From NCBI RefSeq assembly GCF_036507355.1, contig NZ_AP027877.1: a stretch of 64,000 nt of DNA; one strand, written 5' to 3'. Of this stretch, positions 4,586 through 57,106 are shown in pieces. The stretch comes from Escherichia coli (GTDB lineage Bacteria > Pseudomonadota > Gammaproteobacteria > Enterobacterales > Enterobacteriaceae). The notes under the pieces were generated by a model. The model worked only from the letters and a program-made list of their open reading frames with translations. It was not told the DNA's origin and did not search any database. Numbering within the stretch: the stretch's first letter is position 1; each line of letters begins with the position of its first letter. Position numbers and translations under genes: made by a program.

Positions 4586-4704
4586 GCCTGATGCGCTGCG
4601 CTTATCAGGCCTACGGGTAATGACTTGTAGGCCGGATAAGACGTTCACGCCGCATCCGGCACTGGTTGCCTGATGCGACGCTTGCGCGTCTTATCAGGCC
4701 TACG
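4586..4704. repeat. REP/BIME cluster (three REP units) in the sdhB-sucA intergenic region
   Basis: Imperfect palindromic units of the type gcctgatgcg...cttatcaggcctac and gtaggccggataag...gccgcatccggca, repeated in alternating orientation. Confidence 0.6.
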
Positions 4705-5438: not shown

Positions 5439-7205
5439 TTAGTAAGTACGAATCTTCGGCGGGAATGCCGGGCGCAGTTTCGGTTCCATGTTGACGCTTC
5501 GGCGCGTCATGGATTCCGACTCTGGCAGATACAGGGAGTGGCACAGCCAGTTTTCATCATCACGATCCGGGAAGTCGAAGCGGCTATGTGCGCCACGGCT
5601 TTCGGTACGGAAGTTGGCAGAAACAGCCGTTGCATACGCCGTTTCCATCAGGTTATCCAGTTCCAGGCACTCAACGCGCTGGGTGTTGAACTCGCTGGAA
5701 GTGTCATCCAGACGGGCATTTTTCAGACGCTCGCGGATAACTTTCAACTGCTCAAGCCCTTTCGCCATCGCATCACCTTCACGGAAGACCGAGAAGTTAT
5801 GCTGCATACATTCTTGCAGCGCTTTACGAATCGCCACCGGATCTTCACCGTTACGATTATTGTTCCAGCGGTTCAGACGATCCAGAGACGCTTCAACATC
5901 AGACTCGCTGGCATCGCGCAGTGCGCCCTGCTCGGCGATAGACTCTTGCAGATGCAGACCTGCCGCACGACCAAAGACCACCAGGTCCAGCAGCGAGTTG
6001 CCGCCCAGACGGTTAGCGCCGTGTACCGATACACAAGCGATTTCACCTACCGCGAACAGCCCCGGAACAACCACATCTTCGCCTTTCTCATTCACAGTCA
6101 GCGCCTGACCGGTAACTTTGGTCGGAATACCGCCCATCATGTAGTGACAGGTTGGGATAACCGGAATCGGCTCTTTCACCGGATCAACGTGAGCGAAGGT
6201 ACGGGAAAGCTCCAGGATACCCGGCAGACGGGATTCGAGAACTTCTTTACCCAGGTGATCGAGTTTCAGTTTCGCGTGTGGCCCCCACGGACCATCACAG
6301 CCGCGACCTTCACGGATTTCGATCATGATGGAACGCGCCACCACATCACGGCCCGCCAGGTCTTTGGCGTTCGGCGCATAACGCTCCATAAAGCGTTCGC
6401 CATGTTTGTTCAGCAGATAACCGCCTTCACCACGGCAACCTTCGGTGACCAGTACGCCCGCACCGGCAATGCCGGTCGGGTGGAATTGCCACATTTCCAT
6501 ATCCTGCACCGGTACACCTGCACGGATAGCCATGCCGACGCCGTCGCCAGTGTTAATGTGGGCGTTAGTGGTGGACTGATAAATACGCCCTGCTCCGCCA
6601 GTCGCCAGCACGGTAGCGCGGGCTTTGAAATAAACCACTTCACCGGTTTCGATGCACAGTGCGGTACAACCCACCACCGCGCCATCCTGGTTTTTCACCA
6701 GATCCAGCGCATACCACTCAGAGAAAATGGTGGTGTGGTTTTTCAGGTTCTGCTGATAAAGCGTGTGCAACAGTGCGTGACCGGTACGGTCAGCCGCTGC
6801 CGCAGTACGTGCCGCCTGCTCGCCGCCGAAGTTTTTCGACTGACCGCCAAACGGACGTTGATAGATACGACCATCATCAAGACGCGAGAACGGCAGGCCC
6901 ATGTGTTCGAGTTCCAGAATCGCTTCCGGCCCGGTTTTACACATATATTCAATCGCGTCCTGGTCACCGATATAGTCCGACCCTTTCACGGTGTCGTACA
7001 TATGCCATTCCCAGTTATCTTCATGGGTATTACCCAGCGCAACGGTAATGCCGCCTTGCGCAGAAACGGTATGGGAACGGGTCGGGAAGACTTTAGAGAG
7101 CAGCGCACAGGTCTGGCCGCTCTGGGAAATTTGCAGCGCCGCGCGCATACCTGCGCCGCCGGCACCAATCACAACTGCATCAAATTCTCTGACTGGCAAT
7201 TTCAT
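5439..7205 (-). CDS. sdhA: Succinate dehydrogenase flavoprotein subunit
   Basis: Track ORF 5439..7217 begins [26 protein letters not shown]...; start placed at MKLPVREF, giving 588 aa; FAD-binding GAGGAG motif. Confidence 0.96.
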
Positions 7206-7552: not shown

Positions 7553-7935
7553 ACGAGGACTCCTGCGAGAAGTGAAAGCACGACAGTAATAACAAAGGAG
7601 ATTTTGGCGGAGCGTTTACCCGCTTCGAATGTTTCTTCCAGATAGCCAAAATCCATCATCATGTGGCGAATACCTACGACGACGTGATACGCCAGAGCGG
7701 TAAGGATGCCCCACATGATAAATTTGACGAAGAAGCTGCCCATAATCGCGGAAGCTTGCTCGAAACCTTCAGGGGAAGAGAGGCTGGTACCCAGAAGCCA
7801 CAGCAGGATGCCCACTGCAACAAAGGTGATCACACCGGAAACGCGATGGAGAATGGACGCTATCGCCGTGATGGGGAACCGGATGGTCTGTAGGTCCAGA
7901 TTAACAGGTCTTTGTTTTTTCACATTTCTTATCAT
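7546..7935 (-). CDS. sdhC: Succinate dehydrogenase cytochrome b556 subunit
   Basis: Track ORF extends to 7950 ([10 protein letters not shown]...); start placed at [34 protein letters not shown], giving 129 aa. Confidence 0.92.
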
Positions 7936-8643
7936 GAATAACGCCCACATGCTGTTCTTATTATTCCCTGGGGACTACGGGCACAGAGGTTAACTTTCTG
8001 TTACCTGGAGACGTCGGGATTTCCTTCCTCCGGTCTGCTTGCGGGTCAGACAGCGTCCTTTCTATAACTGCGCGTCATGCAAAACACTGCTTCCAGATGC
8101 GAAAACGACACGTTACAACGCTGGGTGGCTCGGGATTGCAGGGTGTTCCGGAGACCTGGCGGCAGTATAGGCTGTTCACAAAATCATTACAATTAACCTA
8201 CATATAGTTTGTCGGGTTTTATCCTGAACAGTGATCCAGGTCACGATAACAACATTTATTTAATTTTTAATCATCTAATTTGACAATCATTCAACAAAGT
8301 TGTTACAAACATTACCAGGAAAAGCATATAATGCGTAAAAGTTATGAAGTCGGTATTTCACCTAAGATTAACTTATGTAACAGTGTGGAAGTATTGACCA
8401 ATTCATTCGGGACAGTTATTAGTGGTAGACAAGTTTAATAATTCGGATTGCTAAGTACTTGATTCGCCATTTATTCGTCATCAATGGATCCTTTACCTGC
8501 AAGCGCCCAGAGCTCTGTACCCAGGTTTTCCCCTCTTTCACAGAGTGGCGAGCCAAATAACAAACGGGTAAAGCCAGGTTGATGTGCGAAGGCAAATTTA
8601 AGTTCCGGCAGTCTTACGCAATAAGGCGCTAAGGAGACCTTAA
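7936..8643. promoter_or_regulatory. Divergent gltA / sdhCDAB promoter-regulatory region (about 700 bp, AT-rich)
   Basis: Long non-coding, AT-rich spacer between divergently oriented gltA (+) and sdhC (-). Established knowledge places multiple promoters and global-regulator sites here; individual sites were not mapped. Confidence 0.6.
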
Positions 8644-10929: not shown

Positions 10930-13389
10930 ATGGATGCCGTGAATATTTATCGACTCTCTGTTCTTTCCTGTCTGGCAATGGTAACCCCTCCTGCGCTGGC
11001 AGCTGAATTTAACCTTAACGTTCTCGATAAGTCGATTCGGGATAGCGTTGATATTTCGTTGCTCAATCAAAAAGGCGTCGTAGCTCCCGGCGATTACTTT
11101 GTTAGTGTTACGGTTAATAATAATAAAATCAGTAATGGGCAACAAATTCGCTGGCAAAAATCTGGCGATAAAATTATTCCTTGTATCAATGAATCGCTGA
11201 TCGAACTCTTCGGACTTAAATCCGACTTTCGTAAAAAATTACCGGCAATAAAAGAATGTGTCGATTTTAGTGTCTTCCCTAAAATCATCTTTACTTTCGA
11301 TCAGGCAAATCAACAGCTCAATATTACAATCCCGCAGGCATGGCTGGCGTGGCATTCAGAAAACTGGACGCCACCCTCAACGTGGAATAACGGTATTCCT
11401 GGCTTCCTGATGGATTACAACCTGTTTGCCAGCACTTATCGCCCACAAAGCGGCAGCAGCAGCAACAACCTGAACGCCTATGGCACCACGGGCCTCAACG
11501 CCGGGGCATGGCGTCTGCGCAGCGATTATCAGCTTAGCCAGTCCGATAGCGGCGACAACCGTGAACAATCCGGGGCGATTTCACGGACCTACCTGTTCCG
11601 CCCGTTACCGCAAATAGGTTCCCGATTAACCCTGGGCGAAACCGATTTTAGCTCTAACATTTTTGATGGTTTCTCCTATACCGGTGCGGCGTTAGCCAGC
11701 GACGATCGAATGCTCCCCTGGGAGTTACGCGGCTACGCGCCGCAAATCAGCGGCATCGCACAGACTAACGCCACGGTCACGATAAGCCATTCTGGTCGCG
11801 TGATTTACCAGAAAAAAGTTCCGCCAGGCCCATTTATTATTGATGACCTGAATCAGTCAGTGCAAGGTACACTGGATGTCAAAGTGAGCGAAGAAGATGG
11901 ACGGGGGAATAACTTCCAGGTTTCAGCGGCCTCTACCCCGTTCCTGACGCGTCAGGGCCAGGTGCGCTATAAACTGGCTGCCGGTCGCCCGCGTTCCTCT
12001 ATGTCGCACCACACCGAGGATGAAACCTTCATTAGCCATGAAGTCTCCTGGGGGATGCTCTCCAACACTTCACTATATGGCGGCATGCTTCTCGCAGGCG
12101 ATGACTATCGTTCCGGCGCGCTGGGTATTGGGAAAAATATGCTCTGGCTGGGGGCGCTGTCGTTTGACGTGACCTGGGCCGACAGCCATTTTGATACTCA
12201 ACAGGATGAGCAGGGTTACAGCTACCGCTTTAACTACAGCAAACAGGTTGATGCGACCAACAGCACCATCTCATTGGCAGCCTATCGCTTCTCCGATCGC
12301 CATTTTCACAGCTACGCTAACTACATTGATCACAAATACAATGACGCCGACGCGCAGGATGAAAAGCAAACCATCAGCCTCTCCTTCGGTCAGCCTATTA
12401 CTCCGCTGAATCTTAATCTCTACGCCAACATCCTGCATCAGAGCTGGTGGAATGCGGATACCTCCACCACGGCCAACATTACCGTCGGTTTTAACGTCGA
12501 CATTGGCGACTGGAAAGATATTTCTGTCTCGACCTCGTTCAACACCACCCATTATGAAGATAAAGATCGCGACAACCAGATTTACTTTTCGATCTCCTTA
12601 CCGATTGGGGAAAGTGGTCGACTGGGTTATGACATGCAGAACAACAGTAATACTACCACCCACCGCATGTCGTGGAACGATACCCTGGATGAACGAAACA
12701 GTTGGGGAATGTCGGCTGGAATACAATCCGATCGCCCGGATAACGGTGCGCAGGTCAGCGGCAATTACCAACACCTCAGTTCGGCGGGGGAATGGGATCT
12801 GACCGGAACCTATGCCGCCAATGATTACACTTCCGCCAGTGCCAGTTGGAGCGGCTCGTTTACCGCGACTCAACATGGCGCGGCATTCCATCGCCGCAGT
12901 TCCACCAATGAACCACGCCTGATGGTCAGCACCGACGGCGTGGGCGATATTCCGATTCAGGGCAATATTGACTACACCAACCGCTTTGGTATTACCGTGG
13001 TACCGTTTGTTTCCAGCTACCAGCCTACGACGGTGGCGGTCAATATGAACGACTTGCCTGACGGCGTTACCGTTTCCGAAAACGTGGTGAAAGAAACCTG
13101 GACCGAAGGCGCCATCGGCTTTAAATCGCTGGCGTCCCGCGCCGGGAAAGATCTCAACGTCATTATCAGCGATGCTAACGGGCATTTCCCGCCGCTCGGT
13201 GCCGATGTTCGCCAGGCTGAAGGCGGTGTCAGCGTCGGGATGGTTGGCGAAAACGGTCACGCATGGCTGAGTGGGGTCGATGAAAATCAACAATTTACCG
13301 TGCACTGGGGCGACCAGAAAACGTGTGCCATTCATCTGCCGGAACATCTGGAAGATGTGACTAAGCGCCTGATTTTACCCTGTCATTAA
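10930..13389 (+). CDS. ybgQ: Outer-membrane fimbrial usher protein
   Basis: 819-aa ORF with N-terminal signal peptide and usher-sized beta-barrel protein; sits between the subunit and chaperone genes. Confidence 0.9.
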   Translation: MDAVNIYRLSVLSCLAMVTPPALAAEFNLNVLDKSIRDSVDISLLNQKGVVAPGDYFVSVTVNNNKISNGQQIRWQKSGDKIIPCINESLIELFGLKSDFRKKLPAIKECVDFSVFPKIIFTFDQANQQLNITIPQAWLAWHSENWTPPSTWNNGIPGFLMDYNLFASTYRPQSGSSSNNLNAYGTTGLNAGAWRLRSDYQLSQSDSGDNREQSGAISRTYLFRPLPQIGSRLTLGETDFSSNIFDGFSYTGAALASDDRMLPWELRGYAPQISGIAQTNATVTISHSGRVIYQKKVPPGPFIIDDLNQSVQGTLDVKVSEEDGRGNNFQVSAASTPFLTRQGQVRYKLAAGRPRSSMSHHTEDETFISHEVSWGMLSNTSLYGGMLLAGDDYRSGALGIGKNMLWLGALSFDVTWADSHFDTQQDEQGYSYRFNYSKQVDATNSTISLAAYRFSDRHFHSYANYIDHKYNDADAQDEKQTISLSFGQPITPLNLNLYANILHQSWWNADTSTTANITVGFNVDIGDWKDISVSTSFNTTHYEDKDRDNQIYFSISLPIGESGRLGYDMQNNSNTTTHRMSWNDTLDERNSWGMSAGIQSDRPDNGAQVSGNYQHLSSAGEWDLTGTYAANDYTSASASWSGSFTATQHGAAFHRRSSTNEPRLMVSTDGVGDIPIQGNIDYTNRFGITVVPFVSSYQPTTVAVNMNDLPDGVTVSENVVKETWTEGAIGFKSLASRAGKDLNVIISDANGHFPPLGADVRQAEGGVSVGMVGENGHAWLSGVDENQQFTVHWGDQKTCAIHLPEHLEDVTKRLILPCH

Positions 13390-22050: not shown

Positions 22051-22165
22051 GCCTGATGCGACGCTTAACGCGTCTTATCAGGTCTACGTATTTCCTGCAA
22101 TTTATTGAATTTGCACAAATTTGTAGGCTGGATAAGGCGTTTACGCCGCATCCGGCATCTGGGCT
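22051..22165. repeat. REP/BIME units between convergent dtpD and phr
   Basis: gcctgatgcgacgcttaacgcgtcttatcaggtctac and gtaggctggataaggcgtttacgccgcatccggca palindromic units. Confidence 0.6.
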
Positions 22166-24109: not shown

Positions 24110-24339
24110 TACTGCTCCTGAGATATTAACAGGAGTAAGTGTAGACGTTGGGAAATGATTTTTGTGAAGTTAATCCGCTAGCAGGGCAAGATTACGAAAG
24201 CGCGCTCCCCGCAAGCAACTCATCAAGGTAGTTAATCATGGCTTAACACGATATTACGCCAGAAGTCACCATTTCCAAAACACAGCGCCGCTATAAAGTC
24301 GGCTATGTCAGAGCCCGCCACATAAACAGCAAAACCTAC

Positions 24340-24567
24340 ATGACCACGTACTACTCACGACACCCCTGCCTGAACCTTAAGGGCGACTGGCTGAAAGAGG
24401 CCGGATTTGATACCGGGCGGGGTGTCACGGTGAAGATTTCGGAGGGGTGCCTGACCATTATCGCTGACAGTGACGAGGTGCAGGAGCTGCGGGAGGAACT
24501 TTATCAGGTTAAACAGGTGGTTAAGGGGATACGGAGCGGGATGTTTAGTGTGCTGGACGAGAGTTAA
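24340..24567 (+). CDS. SymE-like small protein (SymE/AbrB-fold type I toxin family); possibly N-terminally truncated
   Basis: 75-aa ORF MTTYYSRHPCLNLKGDWLKEAGFDTGRGVTVKISEGCLTIIADSDEVQELREELYQ... resembles the SymE core (..[33 protein letters not shown]..). The in-frame upstream sequence still looks SymE-like but has no start codon before the stop at 24244. Confidence 0.6.
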   Translation: MTTYYSRHPCLNLKGDWLKEAGFDTGRGVTVKISEGCLTIIADSDEVQELREELYQVKQVVKGIRSGMFSVLDES

Positions 24568-24572
24568 ATAAT

Positions 24573-24612
24573 AAAAAAGCCGGGAAGATGTTATTTTCTT
24601 CCCGGCTTTTTT
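24573..24612. terminator. Bidirectional rho-independent terminator shared by the SymE-like gene (+) and the Rhs immunity gene (-)
   Basis: gccgggaag-(10 nt loop)-cttcccggc stem flanked by an A run on one side and a T run on the other. Confidence 0.75.
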
Positions 24613-24904
24613 AAAGTTTATTTATAGCTTGGTTAATTTCAAATAATAATGAGACAATATCTTTCGCAGAACCATTATAAATGGGGGTATCCCAATCAAA
24701 GTCCTTTATTAAACAAATATAAAAATTCCCATTTAAATTAAAAGATGGTCGCCACCCAACATCCAAAAGATACCCACCAGGATATTCAACTTGGAGCATA
24801 TCTTCCTTAAGTTCATCTCGCTGTTCATTAAGAGGGATGCTTTGTTTCAGGGAGAAGTCATTAAAAATTACATTCCCTTTTTTTCCTAAGAAATCAATGT
24901 TCAT
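24611..24904 (-). CDS. Putative Rhs immunity protein (cognate to the toxin tip immediately upstream)
   Basis: 97-aa AT-rich ORF MNIDFLGKKGNVIFNDFSLKQSIPLNEQRDELKEDMLQVEYPGGYLLDVGW...; its ATG overlaps the toxin stop (ATGA at 24901-24904). Position and composition are typical of rhsI genes; no family assignment was possible. Confidence 0.6.
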   Translation of the reverse strand: MNIDFLGKKGNVIFNDFSLKQSIPLNEQRDELKEDMLQVEYPGGYLLDVGWRPSFNLNGNFYICLIKDFDWDTPIYNGSAKDIVSLLFEINQAINKL

Positions 24905-26151
24905 GGTGTTGTTAGCCTTCGGAATTCATCAAGTGATATGGGATGTCCATGTATTGTCCCACCGCTAAGTTCAACTCGAACCCATTGAGATTCTTTACCC
25001 TCACTGGCCCCAATAACTTTCCCCATATCTTTTACTTTCCATGGTTTACCGTTGGTAACAGGTGTGCCTGTATTAAAAACATCGTATTCCAGCGTTTTAA
25101 TATCAATATCGGGAGAATATTTTGCCGGGCCTGATTTTGTTGATTTAATTATATCCTTCCATGATTTGTTTTTTGGAGGAAAATGTTTGTATCCATGATT
25201 TGTCCATTCAGGTTGCCCACACTTTAAACCTAACGGGTCGATCCACCCCAACGGATTCGGCGCGTATTGGTATAAATTTAATCCACCAAGCAGCCCTATC
25301 GGATCCGTTACCATGAACCGCCCGACATCCGGATCATAGTACCTGTGCAGATTGTAGTGCAGCCCCGTTTCCCTGTCGAGGTACTGTCCCTGGTAGCGCA
25401 GGTTCTGCTCCACCCTGCCGTGGTCCTTCTCCTGTATCGTGTTACCCCAGACCTGATACCCCGTCTCCCACACGATTCTCCCGTCGCTGTCCGTCATCTC
25501 TTCCGGCGCACCGTTCACATCCGTGTGAAAATACAGTATCCGGTTCGGGCCCTCTTTGCCTGCCTTATCCACCCGCGCCAGCGGTTCATAACTCCCCGGG
25601 TCCCTGTAGATGTACAGGCTGCCTGTTCCCTCCGGCCTGCTCTCCTGCGCCAGCCGCATTCCGTCCCATAAAAATTTTGTCCGGTTGTACGGTTTACCGT
25701 CAGGGCTGATGTGCTGTTTTTCCGTCCGCCTCCCCAGTGCATCGTACACATACCGGTATGCCCCCCGCGCTGTCGTCACTTCCACCATCCGGTGTTCCGC
25801 ATCATAACGGTAACTCTGCGTTCCGCTCCGGCCCTCCTTTTCCACCGCACGGCCAAATTCGTCATAACGGTAGTGCACACCACGGTAAGACATCAGCCGG
25901 TTGAACGGCACCACGCTGTTTTCTGCCGTGGCCCTTTCCCCCGCGCGCCTCCCCAGCAGGTTTCCCGCCGCGTCGTACTGCCAGCTCGCCAGATACCCCT
26001 CATCCTCCGAACGGCACGCCGTGATGCGCCCCGTGGGGTCGTAGAAGTAATCCGTTTCCCCCCGCCGGCTGTGCCGCGTCTTCAGCAGTTCATCCTCGCC
26101 ACTGTAGCTGTACTGCCGGTCCGTGAACGTCTCCGGTACCACCCCGCGCAT
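24901..26151 (-). CDS. Rhs protein, C-terminal part: end of YD-repeat core, PxxxxDPxGL motif and a 107-aa toxin tip. Same frame as the upstream fragment, separated from it by an in-frame TAG
   Basis: ORF contains YD repeats (YRYDEFGR, YRYDAEHR, YVYDALGRR) and the hallmark YYDPDVGRFMVTDPIGLLGGLNLYQYAPNPLGWIDPLGL, followed by a low-GC tip KCGQPEWTNHGYKHF...TIHGHPISLDEFRRLTTP. Frame arithmetic: the TAG at 26221-26223 is in frame with this ORF. Confidence 0.85.
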   Translation of the reverse strand: MRGVVPETFTDRQYSYSGEDELLKTRHSRRGETDYFYDPTGRITACRSEDEGYLASWQYDAAGNLLGRRAGERATAENSVVPFNRLMSYRGVHYRYDEFGRAVEKEGRSGTQSYRYDAEHRMVEVTTARGAYRYVYDALGRRTEKQHISPDGKPYNRTKFLWDGMRLAQESRPEGTGSLYIYRDPGSYEPLARVDKAGKEGPNRILYFHTDVNGAPEEMTDSDGRIVWETGYQVWGNTIQEKDHGRVEQNLRYQGQYLDRETGLHYNLHRYYDPDVGRFMVTDPIGLLGGLNLYQYAPNPLGWIDPLGLKCGQPEWTNHGYKHFPPKNKSWKDIIKSTKSGPAKYSPDIDIKTLEYDVFNTGTPVTNGKPWKVKDMGKVIGASEGKESQWVRVELSGGTIHGHPISLDEFRRLTTP

Positions 26152-26220
26152 CCCGCTGTATGTCTCCCTGCGCTTCAGCCGCCCGCCGGGGTCGTAAAGC
26201 TGCCGCGTGCTCAGTCGCCC

Positions 26221-28380
26221 CTAGCTTCTGAGCACCTCACGGTGCAGGTGGTCGCGCGTGAACTCGCTGATGACCTCCCGGTCCAGATTTATCTGCTGGA
26301 GATGGCCGCTGCCGTAGTACAGATGGCGCTGCGTTCTGCCGTCCGGAAAGGTGGTGGCAGTCCGGTTGCCCAGTTCATCGTACTGGTGGGTCAGGATGCC
26401 CTGCGCCGTCTCCTCGCTCAGCATCCGCCCCAGTCTGTCGTAGCTGAAGCAGATAACTTCCGGCGCGTCAGTTTCGTGCCGCTGGCGGCGGATTTCACCG
26501 CCCCGGTCCCCGGTGAACACCACTTCCGTGACCGCGTTCAGCGCGTTGTAGCGGTACGACTGGCGGCAGCCGTCCGGATTTATCTGCTCCGCCAGACGGT
26601 CCAGCACGTCATGGCGGAACCGGTAGCGTTCTCCGTTCTCGTTCGTGAGCGTGACCAGACGCCCGTAAGCGTCGTACCCGAACGCCGTCCTGCGCCCCAT
26701 CGCGTCCGTCCGGCTGCGCACCCGGCCCTGCCCGTCCCGCTGCCAGCGCGTTATCCTCCCCATCGGGCTGGTGTACTTCACCAGACTGCCCGCCGCGTCT
26801 GACTGGTAATTCACCGTGCGGCCGTCCGCCAGTATCACCTCCGTCAGATGACCGCTGTCGTCATACCCGTAGCGCGTGCTGTGGCTCTCCGCATCCGTCA
26901 TTCTGATAAGCCGCGTGCGTTCGTCGTAGAACCACGCCGTCTGCGAGCCGGAGCAGTCCGTGTGCCGCATGAGCTGCCCGTCTTCATTCCACTGGAGGTG
27001 TTTATTCCCCCCGCGCGCATCCGTTATCTGCACCACCTGGCCGTGGTGGTCATACTGATACCGGGTGTTCTGCTGCAGCGGGTCGGTCACGGCAAGAAGG
27101 TTGCCGCGTTCATCGTACACACAGCGCCAGGTGTTTCCCGCCGCGTCCACCTCCGTTTCCGGCTGGTGCCACACCGGGTGCCACTGTGTCTGCGCCACCC
27201 GCCCCAGCGGGTCGTGCGTCTCCGTGATATGCCCCTGCCGGTCATACACATAGCGCCATTTGCCGCCCTGAGGGTCGGTCATCCCCAGCAACAGTCGTTC
27301 TTCGTCGCTCCAGCGGAATGTCGTCACCTGTCCGGCTTCGTCCTGGTACGCCGTCACCTGATTCTGCGCATCCCACTGGTGATAACGTGTGCGCCCCAGT
27401 CCGTCCGTCACGCACAGCCTGCGCTGCGCCAGGTCCCACGCCAGCCGGTACTGTTCACCGCTGTCCGTGTGGTGCCCCGTCACCCGCCATGCCGCGTCAT
27501 CCGGACCGTCATACCAGCCCCACTGGTAATAATACCCTTCGCCGCCCGGCTGGCGGTGCAGCGTCATGCAGTGGTTTTCGTCGTAAGCAAACTCACGCAG
27601 CAGGTGCCCCGTGCTGTCGTACACGCCGTTCAGGTGGCCGGCCTCGTCATAGCTGTAACGACGCAGCAGTAAAGGTGCAGTCTCAGGGAAATGCTGATAA
27701 ATCTGTGTCACCCGCCGGGGATGCGCCGCCAGTTCGTAATACAGACGGATGCACGGACGCTGCTGTTCGCCGCTGATTTCCACAATGCGGCCCCGGTCGT
27801 CGTAGTACAGATTCAGACAGTTGCTGTTACGGTCGCCCAGCATTTTCAGCCGCTGGCGCTGCGGGTGGTGCGGGTCGCCTTCAAACAACCAGTGGATACC
27901 ATCATCGCTGCTGATAAGCCAGTGCCCCTGCTCACCACGCCTTACCGCCAGCCCTTCACCGGGGCTGTAAAACCCGCCCCCCGGCAGTACGGCTTCCATA
28001 TCCAGGCGTCGCCCCATACCCGACACAAAGGTCATGCAGTTTTCGTCTGCGCCACCCGGCAATACAAATGCCACCTGACACTGGTACACCTGCTCGTTAT
28101 CACGGAGAAACTGGCTCTGTATTTCCAGCCCTTGTTCACCGTCATTAATCCCTACCCGTGTTACCTGAACTGGCGTGTAGTGAAGATCCTTTACCTGTTT
28201 CTCCAGTTTTTTCATTTGCTGTTCAATCTGGGAGGCTAATTCGTCTCCTTCCTGCATCTGGCCCCGACTGATAATGAGTGCAGCGTCGGGATCGCTGAGG
28301 CGCAGCATATTAATAGTGCTGTCCTGAATAATATTCCCGGGAAAAGTTACAACAGTTTCATTGAGATAATACTCCGTCAT
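26221..28380 (-). CDS. Rhs protein, N-terminal part: DUF1795-like N-terminal domain plus YD-repeat core, ended by an in-frame amber codon (probable pseudogene or disrupted gene)
   Basis: 719-aa ORF. Core shows classic Rhs repeats (YQYDHHGQVV, YGYDDSGHLTEV, FGYDAYGRLV) and ends ...FTRDHLHREVLRS*, where intact Rhs proteins continue ...TRDRLHRETLRSFG.... Confidence 0.85.
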   Translation of the reverse strand: MTEYYLNETVVTFPGNIIQDSTINMLRLSDPDAALIISRGQMQEGDELASQIEQQMKKLEKQVKDLHYTPVQVTRVGINDGEQGLEIQSQFLRDNEQVYQCQVAFVLPGGADENCMTFVSGMGRRLDMEAVLPGGGFYSPGEGLAVRRGEQGHWLISSDDGIHWLFEGDPHHPQRQRLKMLGDRNSNCLNLYYDDRGRIVEISGEQQRPCIRLYYELAAHPRRVTQIYQHFPETAPLLLRRYSYDEAGHLNGVYDSTGHLLREFAYDENHCMTLHRQPGGEGYYYQWGWYDGPDDAAWRVTGHHTDSGEQYRLAWDLAQRRLCVTDGLGRTRYHQWDAQNQVTAYQDEAGQVTTFRWSDEERLLLGMTDPQGGKWRYVYDRQGHITETHDPLGRVAQTQWHPVWHQPETEVDAAGNTWRCVYDERGNLLAVTDPLQQNTRYQYDHHGQVVQITDARGGNKHLQWNEDGQLMRHTDCSGSQTAWFYDERTRLIRMTDAESHSTRYGYDDSGHLTEVILADGRTVNYQSDAAGSLVKYTSPMGRITRWQRDGQGRVRSRTDAMGRRTAFGYDAYGRLVTLTNENGERYRFRHDVLDRLAEQINPDGCRQSYRYNALNAVTEVVFTGDRGGEIRRQRHETDAPEVICFSYDRLGRMLSEETAQGILTHQYDELGNRTATTFPDGRTQRHLYYGSGHLQQINLDREVISEFTRDHLHREVLRS

Positions 28381-29163
28381 AATGATATGAGTCCTTTTTA
28401 ATTAATAAATTATTTAATGATGGTTTTTGTTTATTTTTAGTCATGAAAATGATACCCATCACTGCTTTACAGCACACTTTATCTTTCCAGCCATAATCAC
28501 TAATAATATTAAGCAATTACCAATATTTACACCGACCAGAGCGGATACATAGTTATGTATTTAACAATCCCAATATATTCACTATGCAAATAAAACCACT
28601 AGTAACAGACACGCTACCGCCTCCATATAAAAATGGACACCTTATAAAATTGTATCTTGCATAGAAAAAGCTGAAATATCGGATGCGTTTTAATTATCCA
28701 CTATAAGTCTATAAGCTTTTTATTAACAACAAAACATCTTATTGGATTAGATATGTTAACAATTAATTATTCTTAATATATCAATAAAGTATATATTACT
28801 CTCTTTACTATCTGCTTTTCTTGCGGTAGCGATACTAATAGCAAAATTCGGAATTTATTTAGATGCTGGAATTAGAAAAAGGGATGGCGGCCTTCTCACC
28901 TTACCCTGAAGTCTCAGGAAAGTGTGTAAGGAAGTATGCAACCTAACTGGAGATTTCTGATGATCTAGCCGCTTAGAGCGACAATGAAGGTGACCGCATC
29001 CTGGGTAGCCCTATGAAAGGATACTATTGAAACTTGATGCTAAAACAGTGATGAAATGAATAACACGATGGAAACGTCTTCCATGTTAATTATCATGGAA
29101 GACGTTGATGTAAAATACCTAAACCAGCCCCCTGATACGAGGCTGGCTTAAGCGCGCAGGCAA

Positions 29164-56402: not shown

Positions 56403-56479
56403 GGCTACGTAGCTCAGTTGGTTAGAGCACATCACTCATAATGATGGGGTCACAGGTTCGAATCCCGTCGTAGCCACCA
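56403..56479 (+). tRNA. metT: tRNA-Met (elongator, anticodon CAU)
   Basis: ggctacgtagctcagttggttagagcacatcactcataatgatggggtcacaggttcgaatcccgtcgtagccacca; cloverleaf with CAT anticodon and encoded CCA. Confidence 0.95.
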
Positions 56480-56487
56480 TCTTTTTT

Positions 56488-56572
56488 GCGGGAGTGGCGA
56501 AATTGGTAGACGCACCAGATTTAGGTTCTGGCGCCGCAAGGTGTGCGAGTTCAAGTCTCGCCTCCCGCACCA
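56488..56572 (+). tRNA. leuW: tRNA-Leu (anticodon UAG, long variable arm)
   Basis: gcgggagtggcgaaattggtagacgcaccagatttaggttctggcgccgcaaggtgtgcgagttcaagtctcgcctcccgcacca. Confidence 0.93.
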
Positions 56573-56595
56573 TTCACCAGAAAGCGTTGTACGGA

Positions 56596-56670
56596 TGGGG
56601 TATCGCCAAGCGGTAAGGCACCGGTTTTTGATACCGGCATTCCCTGGTTCGAATCCAGGTACCCCAGCCA
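56596..56670 (+). tRNA. glnU: tRNA-Gln (anticodon UUG)
   Basis: tggggtatcgccaagcggtaaggcaccggtttttgataccggcattccctggttcgaatccaggtaccccagcca; anticodon loop ttTTGat. Confidence 0.93.
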
Positions 56671-56704
56671 TCTTCTTCGAGTAAGCGGTTCACCGCCCGG
56701 TTAT

Positions 56705-56779
56705 TGGGGTATCGCCAAGCGGTAAGGCACCGGTTTTTGATACCGGCATTCCCTGGTTCGAATCCAGGTACCCCAGCCA
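56705..56779 (+). tRNA. glnW: tRNA-Gln (anticodon UUG), second copy
   Basis: Identical to the preceding tRNA-Gln(UUG) sequence. Confidence 0.93.
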
Positions 56780-56794
56780 TCGAAGAAACAATCT

Positions 56795-56871
56795 GGCTAC
56801 GTAGCTCAGTTGGTTAGAGCACATCACTCATAATGATGGGGTCACAGGTTCGAATCCCGTCGTAGCCACCA
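56795..56871 (+). tRNA. metU: tRNA-Met (elongator), second copy
   Basis: Identical to the metT sequence. Confidence 0.93.
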
Positions 56872-56919
56872 AATTCTGAATGTGTCGAATATGTTCGGCA
56901 AATTCAAAAACCAATTTGT

Positions 56920-56994
56920 TGGGGTATCGCCAAGCGGTAAGGCACCGGATTCTGATTCCGGCATTCCGAGGTTCGAATCCTCGTACCCCAGCCA
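56920..56994 (+). tRNA. glnV: tRNA-Gln (anticodon CUG; wild-type, not the supE amber-suppressor allele)
   Basis: tggggtatcgccaagcggtaaggcaccggattctgattccggcattccgaggttcgaatcctcgtaccccagcca; anticodon loop ttCTGat. Confidence 0.93.
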
Positions 56995-57031
56995 ATTTAT
57001 TCAAGACGCTTACCTTGTAAGTGCACCCAGT

Positions 57032-57106
57032 TGGGGTATCGCCAAGCGGTAAGGCACCGGATTCTGATTCCGGCATTCCGAGGTTCGAATCCTCGTACCC
57101 CAGCCA
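57032..57106 (+). tRNA. glnX: tRNA-Gln (anticodon CUG), second copy
   Basis: Identical to the glnV sequence. Confidence 0.93.

Follow-up and report, generated by a model that had tools for sequence, protein, structure and literature searches.

An intact immunity gene beside a predicted RNase toxin tip in a decayed Rhs gene at the Escherichia coli rhsC locus

We analysed a stretch of 64,000 nucleotides from an Escherichia coli genome (assembly GCF_036507355.1, contig NZ_AP027877.1; hereafter the window) and found that positions 24611-25224 on the minus strand hold a true pair of toxin tip and immunity gene, which closes an E. coli Rhs gene. The locus lies between ybgA-phrB-dtpD and ybfA-kdpFABC and is the rhsC locus. 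The Rhs gene itself is dead, the main gene of the locus having decayed in place. The reading that we favour, with a probability of roughly 0.8, is that this is an rhsC-locus toxin-immunity cassette, made up of a predicted ribonuclease (RNase) tip and its cognate immunity gene, that has lost its means of delivery and whose immunity gene is most likely still useful.

The open reading frame (ORF) at 24901..26151 (416 amino acids) encodes YD-repeat and Rhs-associated core sequence that ends in ...VTDPIGLLGGLNLYQYAPNPLGWIDPLGL and is followed directly by the tip, 107 amino acids and a stop codon that form the 3' end of the ORF (24901..25224, minus strand). In the translation, the tip is preceded by DPIG-x18-DPLGL, which fits the boundary motif DPxG-x18-DPxGL, and the Rhs-associated core domain (NCBIfam TIGR03696, E 8e-29) ends at residue 309 of 416, exactly at DPLGL. 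Matches to the YD-repeat core 5' of the tip (TIGR01643, E 7e-60) and to RHS_core were found in both pieces into which the Rhs ORF is broken. The immunity ORF (24611..24904, minus strand) encodes 97 amino acids, and its ATG at 24904-24902 overlaps the toxin TGA at 24903-24901 (ATGA). At the far end of the immunity ORF, a hairpin at 24572..24613 with 17 pairs, 7 of them GC, and T-runs on both strands scores as a terminator in both directions. Base composition changes sharply at the tip boundary: GC and third-position GC (GC3) are 0.597/0.735 and 0.633/0.788 in the two parts of the Rhs core, 0.395/0.259 in the tip and 0.320/0.276 in the immunity gene, in a window with an overall GC of 0.524. The original prediction, made from the letters of the window, had described a 107-residue tip placed straight after the DPLGL demarcation with a drop in GC, an ORF of 97 amino acids that starts on the toxin stop and ends at a bidirectional terminator, and thus an Rhs-CT/RhsI arrangement. 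All of this was borne out: the core is 60-63% GC against 39.5% in the tip, ATGA and terminator are present, and YD repeats and core domain lead up to DPLGL. The features are as follows.

24901..25224, minus strand: Rhs C-terminal toxin tip, a predicted Barnase/EndoU/Colicin/RelE (BECR) or RNase A-like RNase with an isoelectric point (pI) of 9.4, from homology and fold comparison.
24611..24904, minus strand: cognate immunity gene rhsI, 97 amino acids, pI 4.5, from the homologue directly 3' of the tip in 79 of 79 loci.
25225..25305, minus strand: autoproteolysis motif DPIG-x18-DPLGL, with the predicted cut after L and before tip K1, from the end of TIGR03696.
25225..26220, minus strand: C-terminal part of the Rhs YD-repeat core, 3' of an amber codon, with the next in-frame ATG at 26151, from translation and domain matches.
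24572..24613, no strand: bidirectional hairpin resembling an intrinsic terminator, common to the immunity gene and a convergent SymE-like gene, from the stem and T-runs.

Genetic linkage identifies the 97-residue protein as the partner of the tip. A scan for the tip domain in a single genome of each species gave 79 loci, spread over Proteobacteria (Enterobacterales, Pseudomonas, Neisseriaceae), Bacteroidota, Firmicutes (Clostridia, Paenibacillus), Dependentiae (Babeliales) and Myxococcota. In all 79, a homologue of the 97-residue protein lies immediately 3' of the tip on the same strand (tblastn E 1e-40 to 2e-5), usually with a gap of -4 to +20 nucleotides (nt). The protein has no match in Pfam, NCBIfam or PADLOC, and a sequence search of solved structures also returned none; its conserved motifs are L-K-E-D-M-L-Q and D-x-G-W. 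Modelling with AlphaFold2 (AF2), using a paired alignment of 43 toxin-linker-immunity fusions, gave a fused model in which both domains have a predicted local distance difference test score above 90, the linker alone is disordered and the predicted template modelling score (pTM) is 0.81, a value seldom attained if the positions of the domains relative to each other are not predicted with confidence. The charges of the two proteins are complementary (toxin pI 9.4, immunity protein pI 4.5). These results strongly support the 97-residue protein as the cognate immunity protein of the tip, which it probably binds 1:1 over the basic RNA-binding face. Cognate immunity had been proposed in the original prediction, and conservation of the ORF together with the tip across several phyla agrees with it, as does the fused model. 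One Pedobacter locus (L054) has two copies of the immunity homologue, at 6380-6640 and 7744-8004, downstream of a single toxin; the second copy is possibly an extra orphan immunity gene.

Within E. coli, the tip and immunity pair was found in 15 of 5,426 complete genomes, and about 210 more match the flanks only. In the latter, the end of the Rhs core and a SymE-family gene enclose other tips. We therefore regard tip and immunity gene as a replaceable cassette between conserved flanks.

Searches with the tip found no match in Pfam (even at E<=10), NCBIfam or PADLOC. A sequence search of the Protein Data Bank (PDB) did find one: 8QJC, the PAAR-Rhs core and toxin of Salmonella bongori, whose last 104 residues (1426-1529) align with tip residues 3-106 at about 88% identity (E 2e-62). 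Two S. bongori fragments, P0001 and P0002, are likewise 88% identical to the tip. The description of the tip as belonging to an unassigned family thus stands for Pfam, NCBIfam and PADLOC and falls short in that a domain about 88% identical has already been discussed for S. bongori. A weak match to the anti-Thoeris protein Tad2 (E 0.09) vanished when the family profile was used and was treated as chance. We collected 94 homologues of the tip and aligned 60 to assess conservation. R83, E85, I91, G93, H94 and P95 are invariant in the 60 sequences, and 90% or more of them keep W7, K13, H14, K35, Y36, N58, K63 and H92.

An exhaustive profile search extended the family to 597 clusters at 50% identity, 331 of them at E<=1e-10. 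Among the best 150 of the 597, the domain stands at the C-terminus or a few residues from it, in proteins of up to 3,340 amino acids. Pfam scans of 64 long members identified RHS, PT-HINT, S-type pyocin (Pyocin_S), PAAR and PT-TG carriers, together with TPS plus haemagglutinin repeats (CdiA-type), SpvB/TcdB and the core of extracellular contractile injection systems (eCIS); Foldseek against AFDB added Hcp fusions, proteins labelled as colicins and LXG effectors of Bacillus subtilis. Such a range of carriers marks the domain as a polymorphic toxin module, and the range includes both the Rhs and the CdiA-type proteins on which the original prediction had proposed looking for the same tip. AFDB also holds a 108-residue protein, A0A0C2JZ13, annotated to the myxozoan Thelohanellus kitauei and 41% identical to the tip model, which probably stems from bacterial DNA contaminating a eukaryotic assembly. 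Three metagenome contigs carry a carrier-free toxin of 107 amino acids with an immunity homologue of 110 amino acids and a 4-nt overlap between them (L085, 3549-4201; L086, 6001-6653; L087, 75-727). These free-standing pairs sit among housekeeping genes, the one on L086 after an HTH_3 gene, and look like toxin-antitoxin modules. The pair in the window does not match a type II toxin-antitoxin (RelE-like) module, a free-standing operon of two genes that regulates itself and has a labile antitoxin; its tip forms the 3' terminus of the Rhs ORF.

The fold of the tip model points to an RNase. Fold comparison listed figures of 8.9 for MafB2-CT of Neisseria meningitidis (8HHJ), 8.3 for YxiD-CTD of B. 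subtilis (9V8I), 5.9 for CdiA-CT of Ykris (5E3E) and 3-4.6 for RelE/HigB/ParE, colicin D and E5, and RNase A members. The tip thus has the same fold as MafB2-CT and YxiD-CTD and resembles several members of the BECR class. At the level of sequence, Ntox50 (PF15542) gave no Pfam match at E<=10, none of the 94 homologues is annotated as PF15542, and the profile of the tip family did not match 8hhj_B or 9v8i_B at E<=10. Because its motif is differently spaced (R-x-E ... I-H-G-H-P) and this link is missing, we treated the tip as a distinct family within the BECR/RNase A-like fold, one that may work like Ntox50 without demonstrably being a member. Conserved positions include the K13-H14 pair, the C-terminal histidines H92 and H94 (H-G-H), and E85 with R83 on the opposite strand. 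The likely catalytic residues are His14 of the K13-H14 pair and H92 and H94 of the IHGHP hairpin, helped by K35, R83 and E85. Given its fold, the tip most likely kills by cutting RNA, and its target would probably be tRNA. The original prediction had guessed at a nuclease from the His-rich motifs, a guess that the modelled fold supports in the form of an RNase.

To place the damage in the Rhs gene, we compared the window with E. coli strain 14EC033, which is 99.1% identical and carries at the same locus ybfA, a chaperone of 150 amino acids, an intact Rhs protein of 1544 amino acids, the immunity gene, an intact symE and ybgA. The 14EC033 chaperone is DcrB-related (DUF1795/EagR-type), and its immunity protein (WP_032280515.1) is identical to the 97-residue protein of the window. 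The Rhs ORF of the window opens with chaperone residues 1-109, 99% identical to the 14EC033 protein, and lacks the last 41. This fragment continues in frame into Rhs at residue ~455, protein and DNA comparison with 14EC033 placing a deletion of about 1.5 kb between them. The missing Rhs residues 1-~454 held a prePAAR motif (AARQGDALLH), hydrophobic transmembrane (TM) segments and a PAAR-like region, parts that are needed for loading onto VgrG. The window therefore has, relative to 14EC033, neither an intact N-terminal delivery region nor an intact chaperone. A further gap of 39 residues interrupts the Rhs core. The amber codon already noticed upstream of the tip is real (TAG at 26223..26221), and the gene is, beyond what had been predicted, N-terminally truncated and fused to a chaperone gene fragment. 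In both E. coli relatives used for comparison (L001 and L002) the amber reads CAG, which makes it a private point mutation of this lineage. The lesions divide the gene as follows.

26221..26223, minus strand: amber stop TAG within the Rhs core, CAG in relatives, from comparison with them.
26224..28053, minus strand: Rhs YD-repeat core from residue ~455 of the intact 1544-residue protein, with a 39-codon deletion near 26460-26475, from protein comparison.
28054..28380, minus strand: codons 1-109 of the gene for the DcrB-related/DUF1795 (EagR-type) chaperone, joined in frame to the Rhs core, from 99% identity.

With a chaperone-Rhs fusion, 39 missing codons and an amber, the toxin cannot be delivered, and the gene, having lost its delivery domains, is what remains after decay, not an orphan that is still armed. 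A search of 5,426 complete genomes of E. coli found no identical copy of the exact deletion junction. In strain TB06052 (L001), the closest relative whose locus is degraded, the Prokaryotic Genome Annotation Pipeline (PGAP) marks the equivalent gene as a pseudogene. Compared with the window (28051-28161), TB06052 has lost about 111 nt more at the chaperone-Rhs junction (11656-11662) and has no amber; decay therefore took different routes in close relatives. The tip protein is identical in the four E. coli relatives checked (4/4), with 0-2 synonymous differences. Against the close relatives L001 and L083, the immunity ORF differs at 2-3 sites, all synonymous; against L002 and L082, 4 of its codons carry nonsynonymous differences.

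Intact alleles would encode a standard Rhs effector of a type VI secretion system (T6SS). The toxin would be held inside the YD-repeat shell and cut off after DPLGL, and the prePAAR/TM/PAAR N-terminus together with the EagR chaperone would load the effector onto VgrG. The T6SS would then fire it, RNA would be cleaved in the target cell, and the immunity protein would give self-protection. In the window, the intact immunity gene could protect against relatives that carry an armed allele, and it is the only part likely to matter in this strain. Sequence and model comparisons show the anatomy, the homology, the fold, the linkage of the two genes and the decay; RNase activity, catalytic residues, binding mode and the role of the immunity gene today are inferred. 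Several points weigh against this account. The pTM of a linker fusion reports on the interface only indirectly. Neither a sequence-level link to Ntox50 or other RNase families nor a published RNase assay for the tip domain or its S. bongori orthologue was found. The H-G-H spacing, which differs from the seven residues seen in MafB2 and YxiD, makes the catalytic assignment uncertain. In the crystal 8QJC the toxin is disordered, with no ordered density (bioRxiv 10.1101/2024.02.26.582050). Finally, the decay looks recent, and the intact state of tip and immunity gene may reflect lack of time instead of selection.

This last point leads to a serious alternative, possible though on the unlikely side, in which the whole cassette is the neutral remnant of a recently inactivated pseudogene and neither toxin nor immunity protein has a present function. 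Four independent lesions (the losses of 1.5 kb and of 39 codons, the amber, and the nonsense mutation of symE), the absence of the exact junction from the 5,426 complete genomes and the PGAP label in TB06052 would all fit such a history. All the lesions lie outside the tip and immunity ORFs, however, though these are AT-rich and span 615 bp together, and the few changes in the immunity ORF relative to close relatives are synonymous throughout. The keeping of orphan immunity genes is also a well documented strategy. We still prefer a cassette whose immunity gene is useful.

A broader proposal makes the tip family a separate RNase toxin clade with a distinctive set of catalytic residues (K-H ... 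R-x-E ... I-H-G-H-P) and a new RNA target, exchanged freely among secreted polymorphic toxins and free-standing pairs that resemble toxin-antitoxin systems, and here possibly an internally expressed immunity or addiction cassette in a dead Rhs gene; as a whole we hold this to be doubtful. Its final element resembles a rival that we consider improbable, namely that the tip is still made from an internal promoter and start codon and is checked by the immunity protein, so that the two would form an addiction or stress module of toxin-antitoxin type. Expression of the tip from an internal start had been suggested in the original prediction, on account of the amber codon. The promoter-like site on which this would depend is listed here.

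25351..25379, minus strand: sigma-70-like promoter match TCGACA-17-TACAAT, 10/12, within the core and 37 nt upstream of the in-frame ATG 25314.

This 10/12 site (25379-25351) and the in-frame ATG 25314, 30 codons before the tip, would favour internal expression, but promoter-like sites are no commoner than in shuffled sequence (5 found versus 3.9 expected), no clear Shine-Dalgarno sequence precedes the ATG, and the product would still carry 30 residues of the core, with no route to release or secretion. Translation from ATG 26151, past the amber codon, would give the ORF of 416 amino acids. The carrier-free metagenome pairs, one of them behind a helix-turn-helix gene, and the fold that the tip has in common with RelE/ParE toxins also speak for such a module. 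In Salmonella, selected orphan expression reportedly still relies on an intact main Rhs protein for delivery, which counts against it. That the tip is a toxin acting as a DNase or on some other substrate, and not as an RNase, is similarly improbable.

The surroundings of the pair include a second toxin gene remnant, listed here with its antisense RNA.

24238..24567, plus strand: remnant of a type I toxin gene (SymE family) that converges on the immunity gene, nonsense at codon 3.
24309..24437, minus strand: isrA-family small RNA (sRNA), antisense to the SymE-like gene (RF01385, 112.9 bits versus a gathering score of 51).

Codon 3 of the SymE-like gene has changed from GAA to TAA (ATG GCT TAA). 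The same change is present in TB06052; the gene is intact in 14EC033 and SCU-111. isrA is an Hfq-binding sRNA, and its strong Rfam match lies antisense to the SymE-like gene beside the immunity gene, so it resembles the antisense component of a type I toxin locus. In strains SCU-111 and A36, every Rhs-CT/immunity module is followed by SymE genes, which are accompanied by XerC and CHC2-primase genes, and the SymE-like/isrA locus looks as if it travels with Rhs cassettes. The intact Rhs copy of SCU-111 adjoins a VgrG gene. Upstream of the chaperone gene start, an AT-rich stretch at 28350-28950 (GC 0.28-0.32) with two weak promoter-like matches is presumably the promoter or regulatory region of the Rhs operon. 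Elsewhere the window has a cluster of seven tRNA genes (56403-57103, plus strand) and Rfam matches to naRNA4 (4630-4700, plus strand) and ES036/CssrF (22080-22122, minus strand).

The locus offers a snapshot of an Rhs weapon in decay with its immunity gene intact, which fits the idea of immunity outliving the weapon. The toxin and immunity family, with about 600 clusters at 50% identity, at least 8 kinds of delivery protein and several phyla, merits a Pfam/InterPro entry of its own. Current annotation calls its members no more than 'hypothetical' or 'RHS repeat-associated core'. Work on activity and RNA targets could readily start from the pairs of E. coli and S. bongori.

Among known systems, the closest is the pair A464_2174/A464_2173 of S. 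bongori N268-08, for whose locus tags a literature search found only the preprint of Kielkopf et al. (bioRxiv 10.1101/2024.02.26.582050). There, the toxin is cleaved off by autocleavage, could be obtained only when the downstream immunity protein A464_2173 was co-expressed, has no CDD, Pfam or InterPro assignment and has a predicted RNase fold with H1437, K1458, H1515 and H1517 as putative catalytic residues. In the PDB alignment, these four map to H14, K35, H92 and H94 of our tip. The two toxins are about 88% identical over the whole domain and share the DPLGL boundary and the RNase prediction, and Pfam has no match for either. The immunity proteins, judged from published primers, have the same ends (MNIDF... 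and ...AINKL). The S. bongori gene is intact with its PAAR region, whereas the copy in the window is truncated, chaperone-fused and amber-interrupted, and the core sequences differ. The pair in the window is the orthologue of this described, biochemically uncharacterised toxin and immunity pair, placed in a decayed locus, and will seem ordinary to specialists.

More distant are the Ntox50 toxins MafB2-CT (8HHJ), whose RNase activity depends on H335, H402 and H409 (PMC9970974), and YxiD-CTD (9V8I), a tRNase of Pfam Ntox50 that depends on H447, H521 and H528 together with K446 and K524 (PMC12700104). The tip shares with them a K-H pair near the N-terminus and a C-terminal hairpin that bears histidines. 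It differs in sequence (16-20% identity), in its motif (R-x-E...I-H-G-H-P versus two histidines seven residues apart), in the fold of its immunity protein and in its carriers, which are Rhs/T6SS for the tip and Maf and LXG/type VII secretion for the others. CdiA-CT of Yersinia kristensenii (5E3E), a bacterial toxin of the RNase A superfamily, is a more distant match with a catalytic set of His/Arg/Thr/Tyr; unlike the tip, it is delivered by CdiA/CdiB, and its immunity protein is unrelated and all-helical. In its general plan, the locus matches the Rhs-CT/RhsI cassettes of E. coli and Salmonella (Poole 2011; Koskiniemi 2013, 2014), with a GC-rich core, DPxGx18DPxGL, an AT-rich tip and a small immunity gene. 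It departs from the classical Rhs orphan modules, which lie downstream and carry a short core stub, in that the copy in the window is the main gene of its locus.

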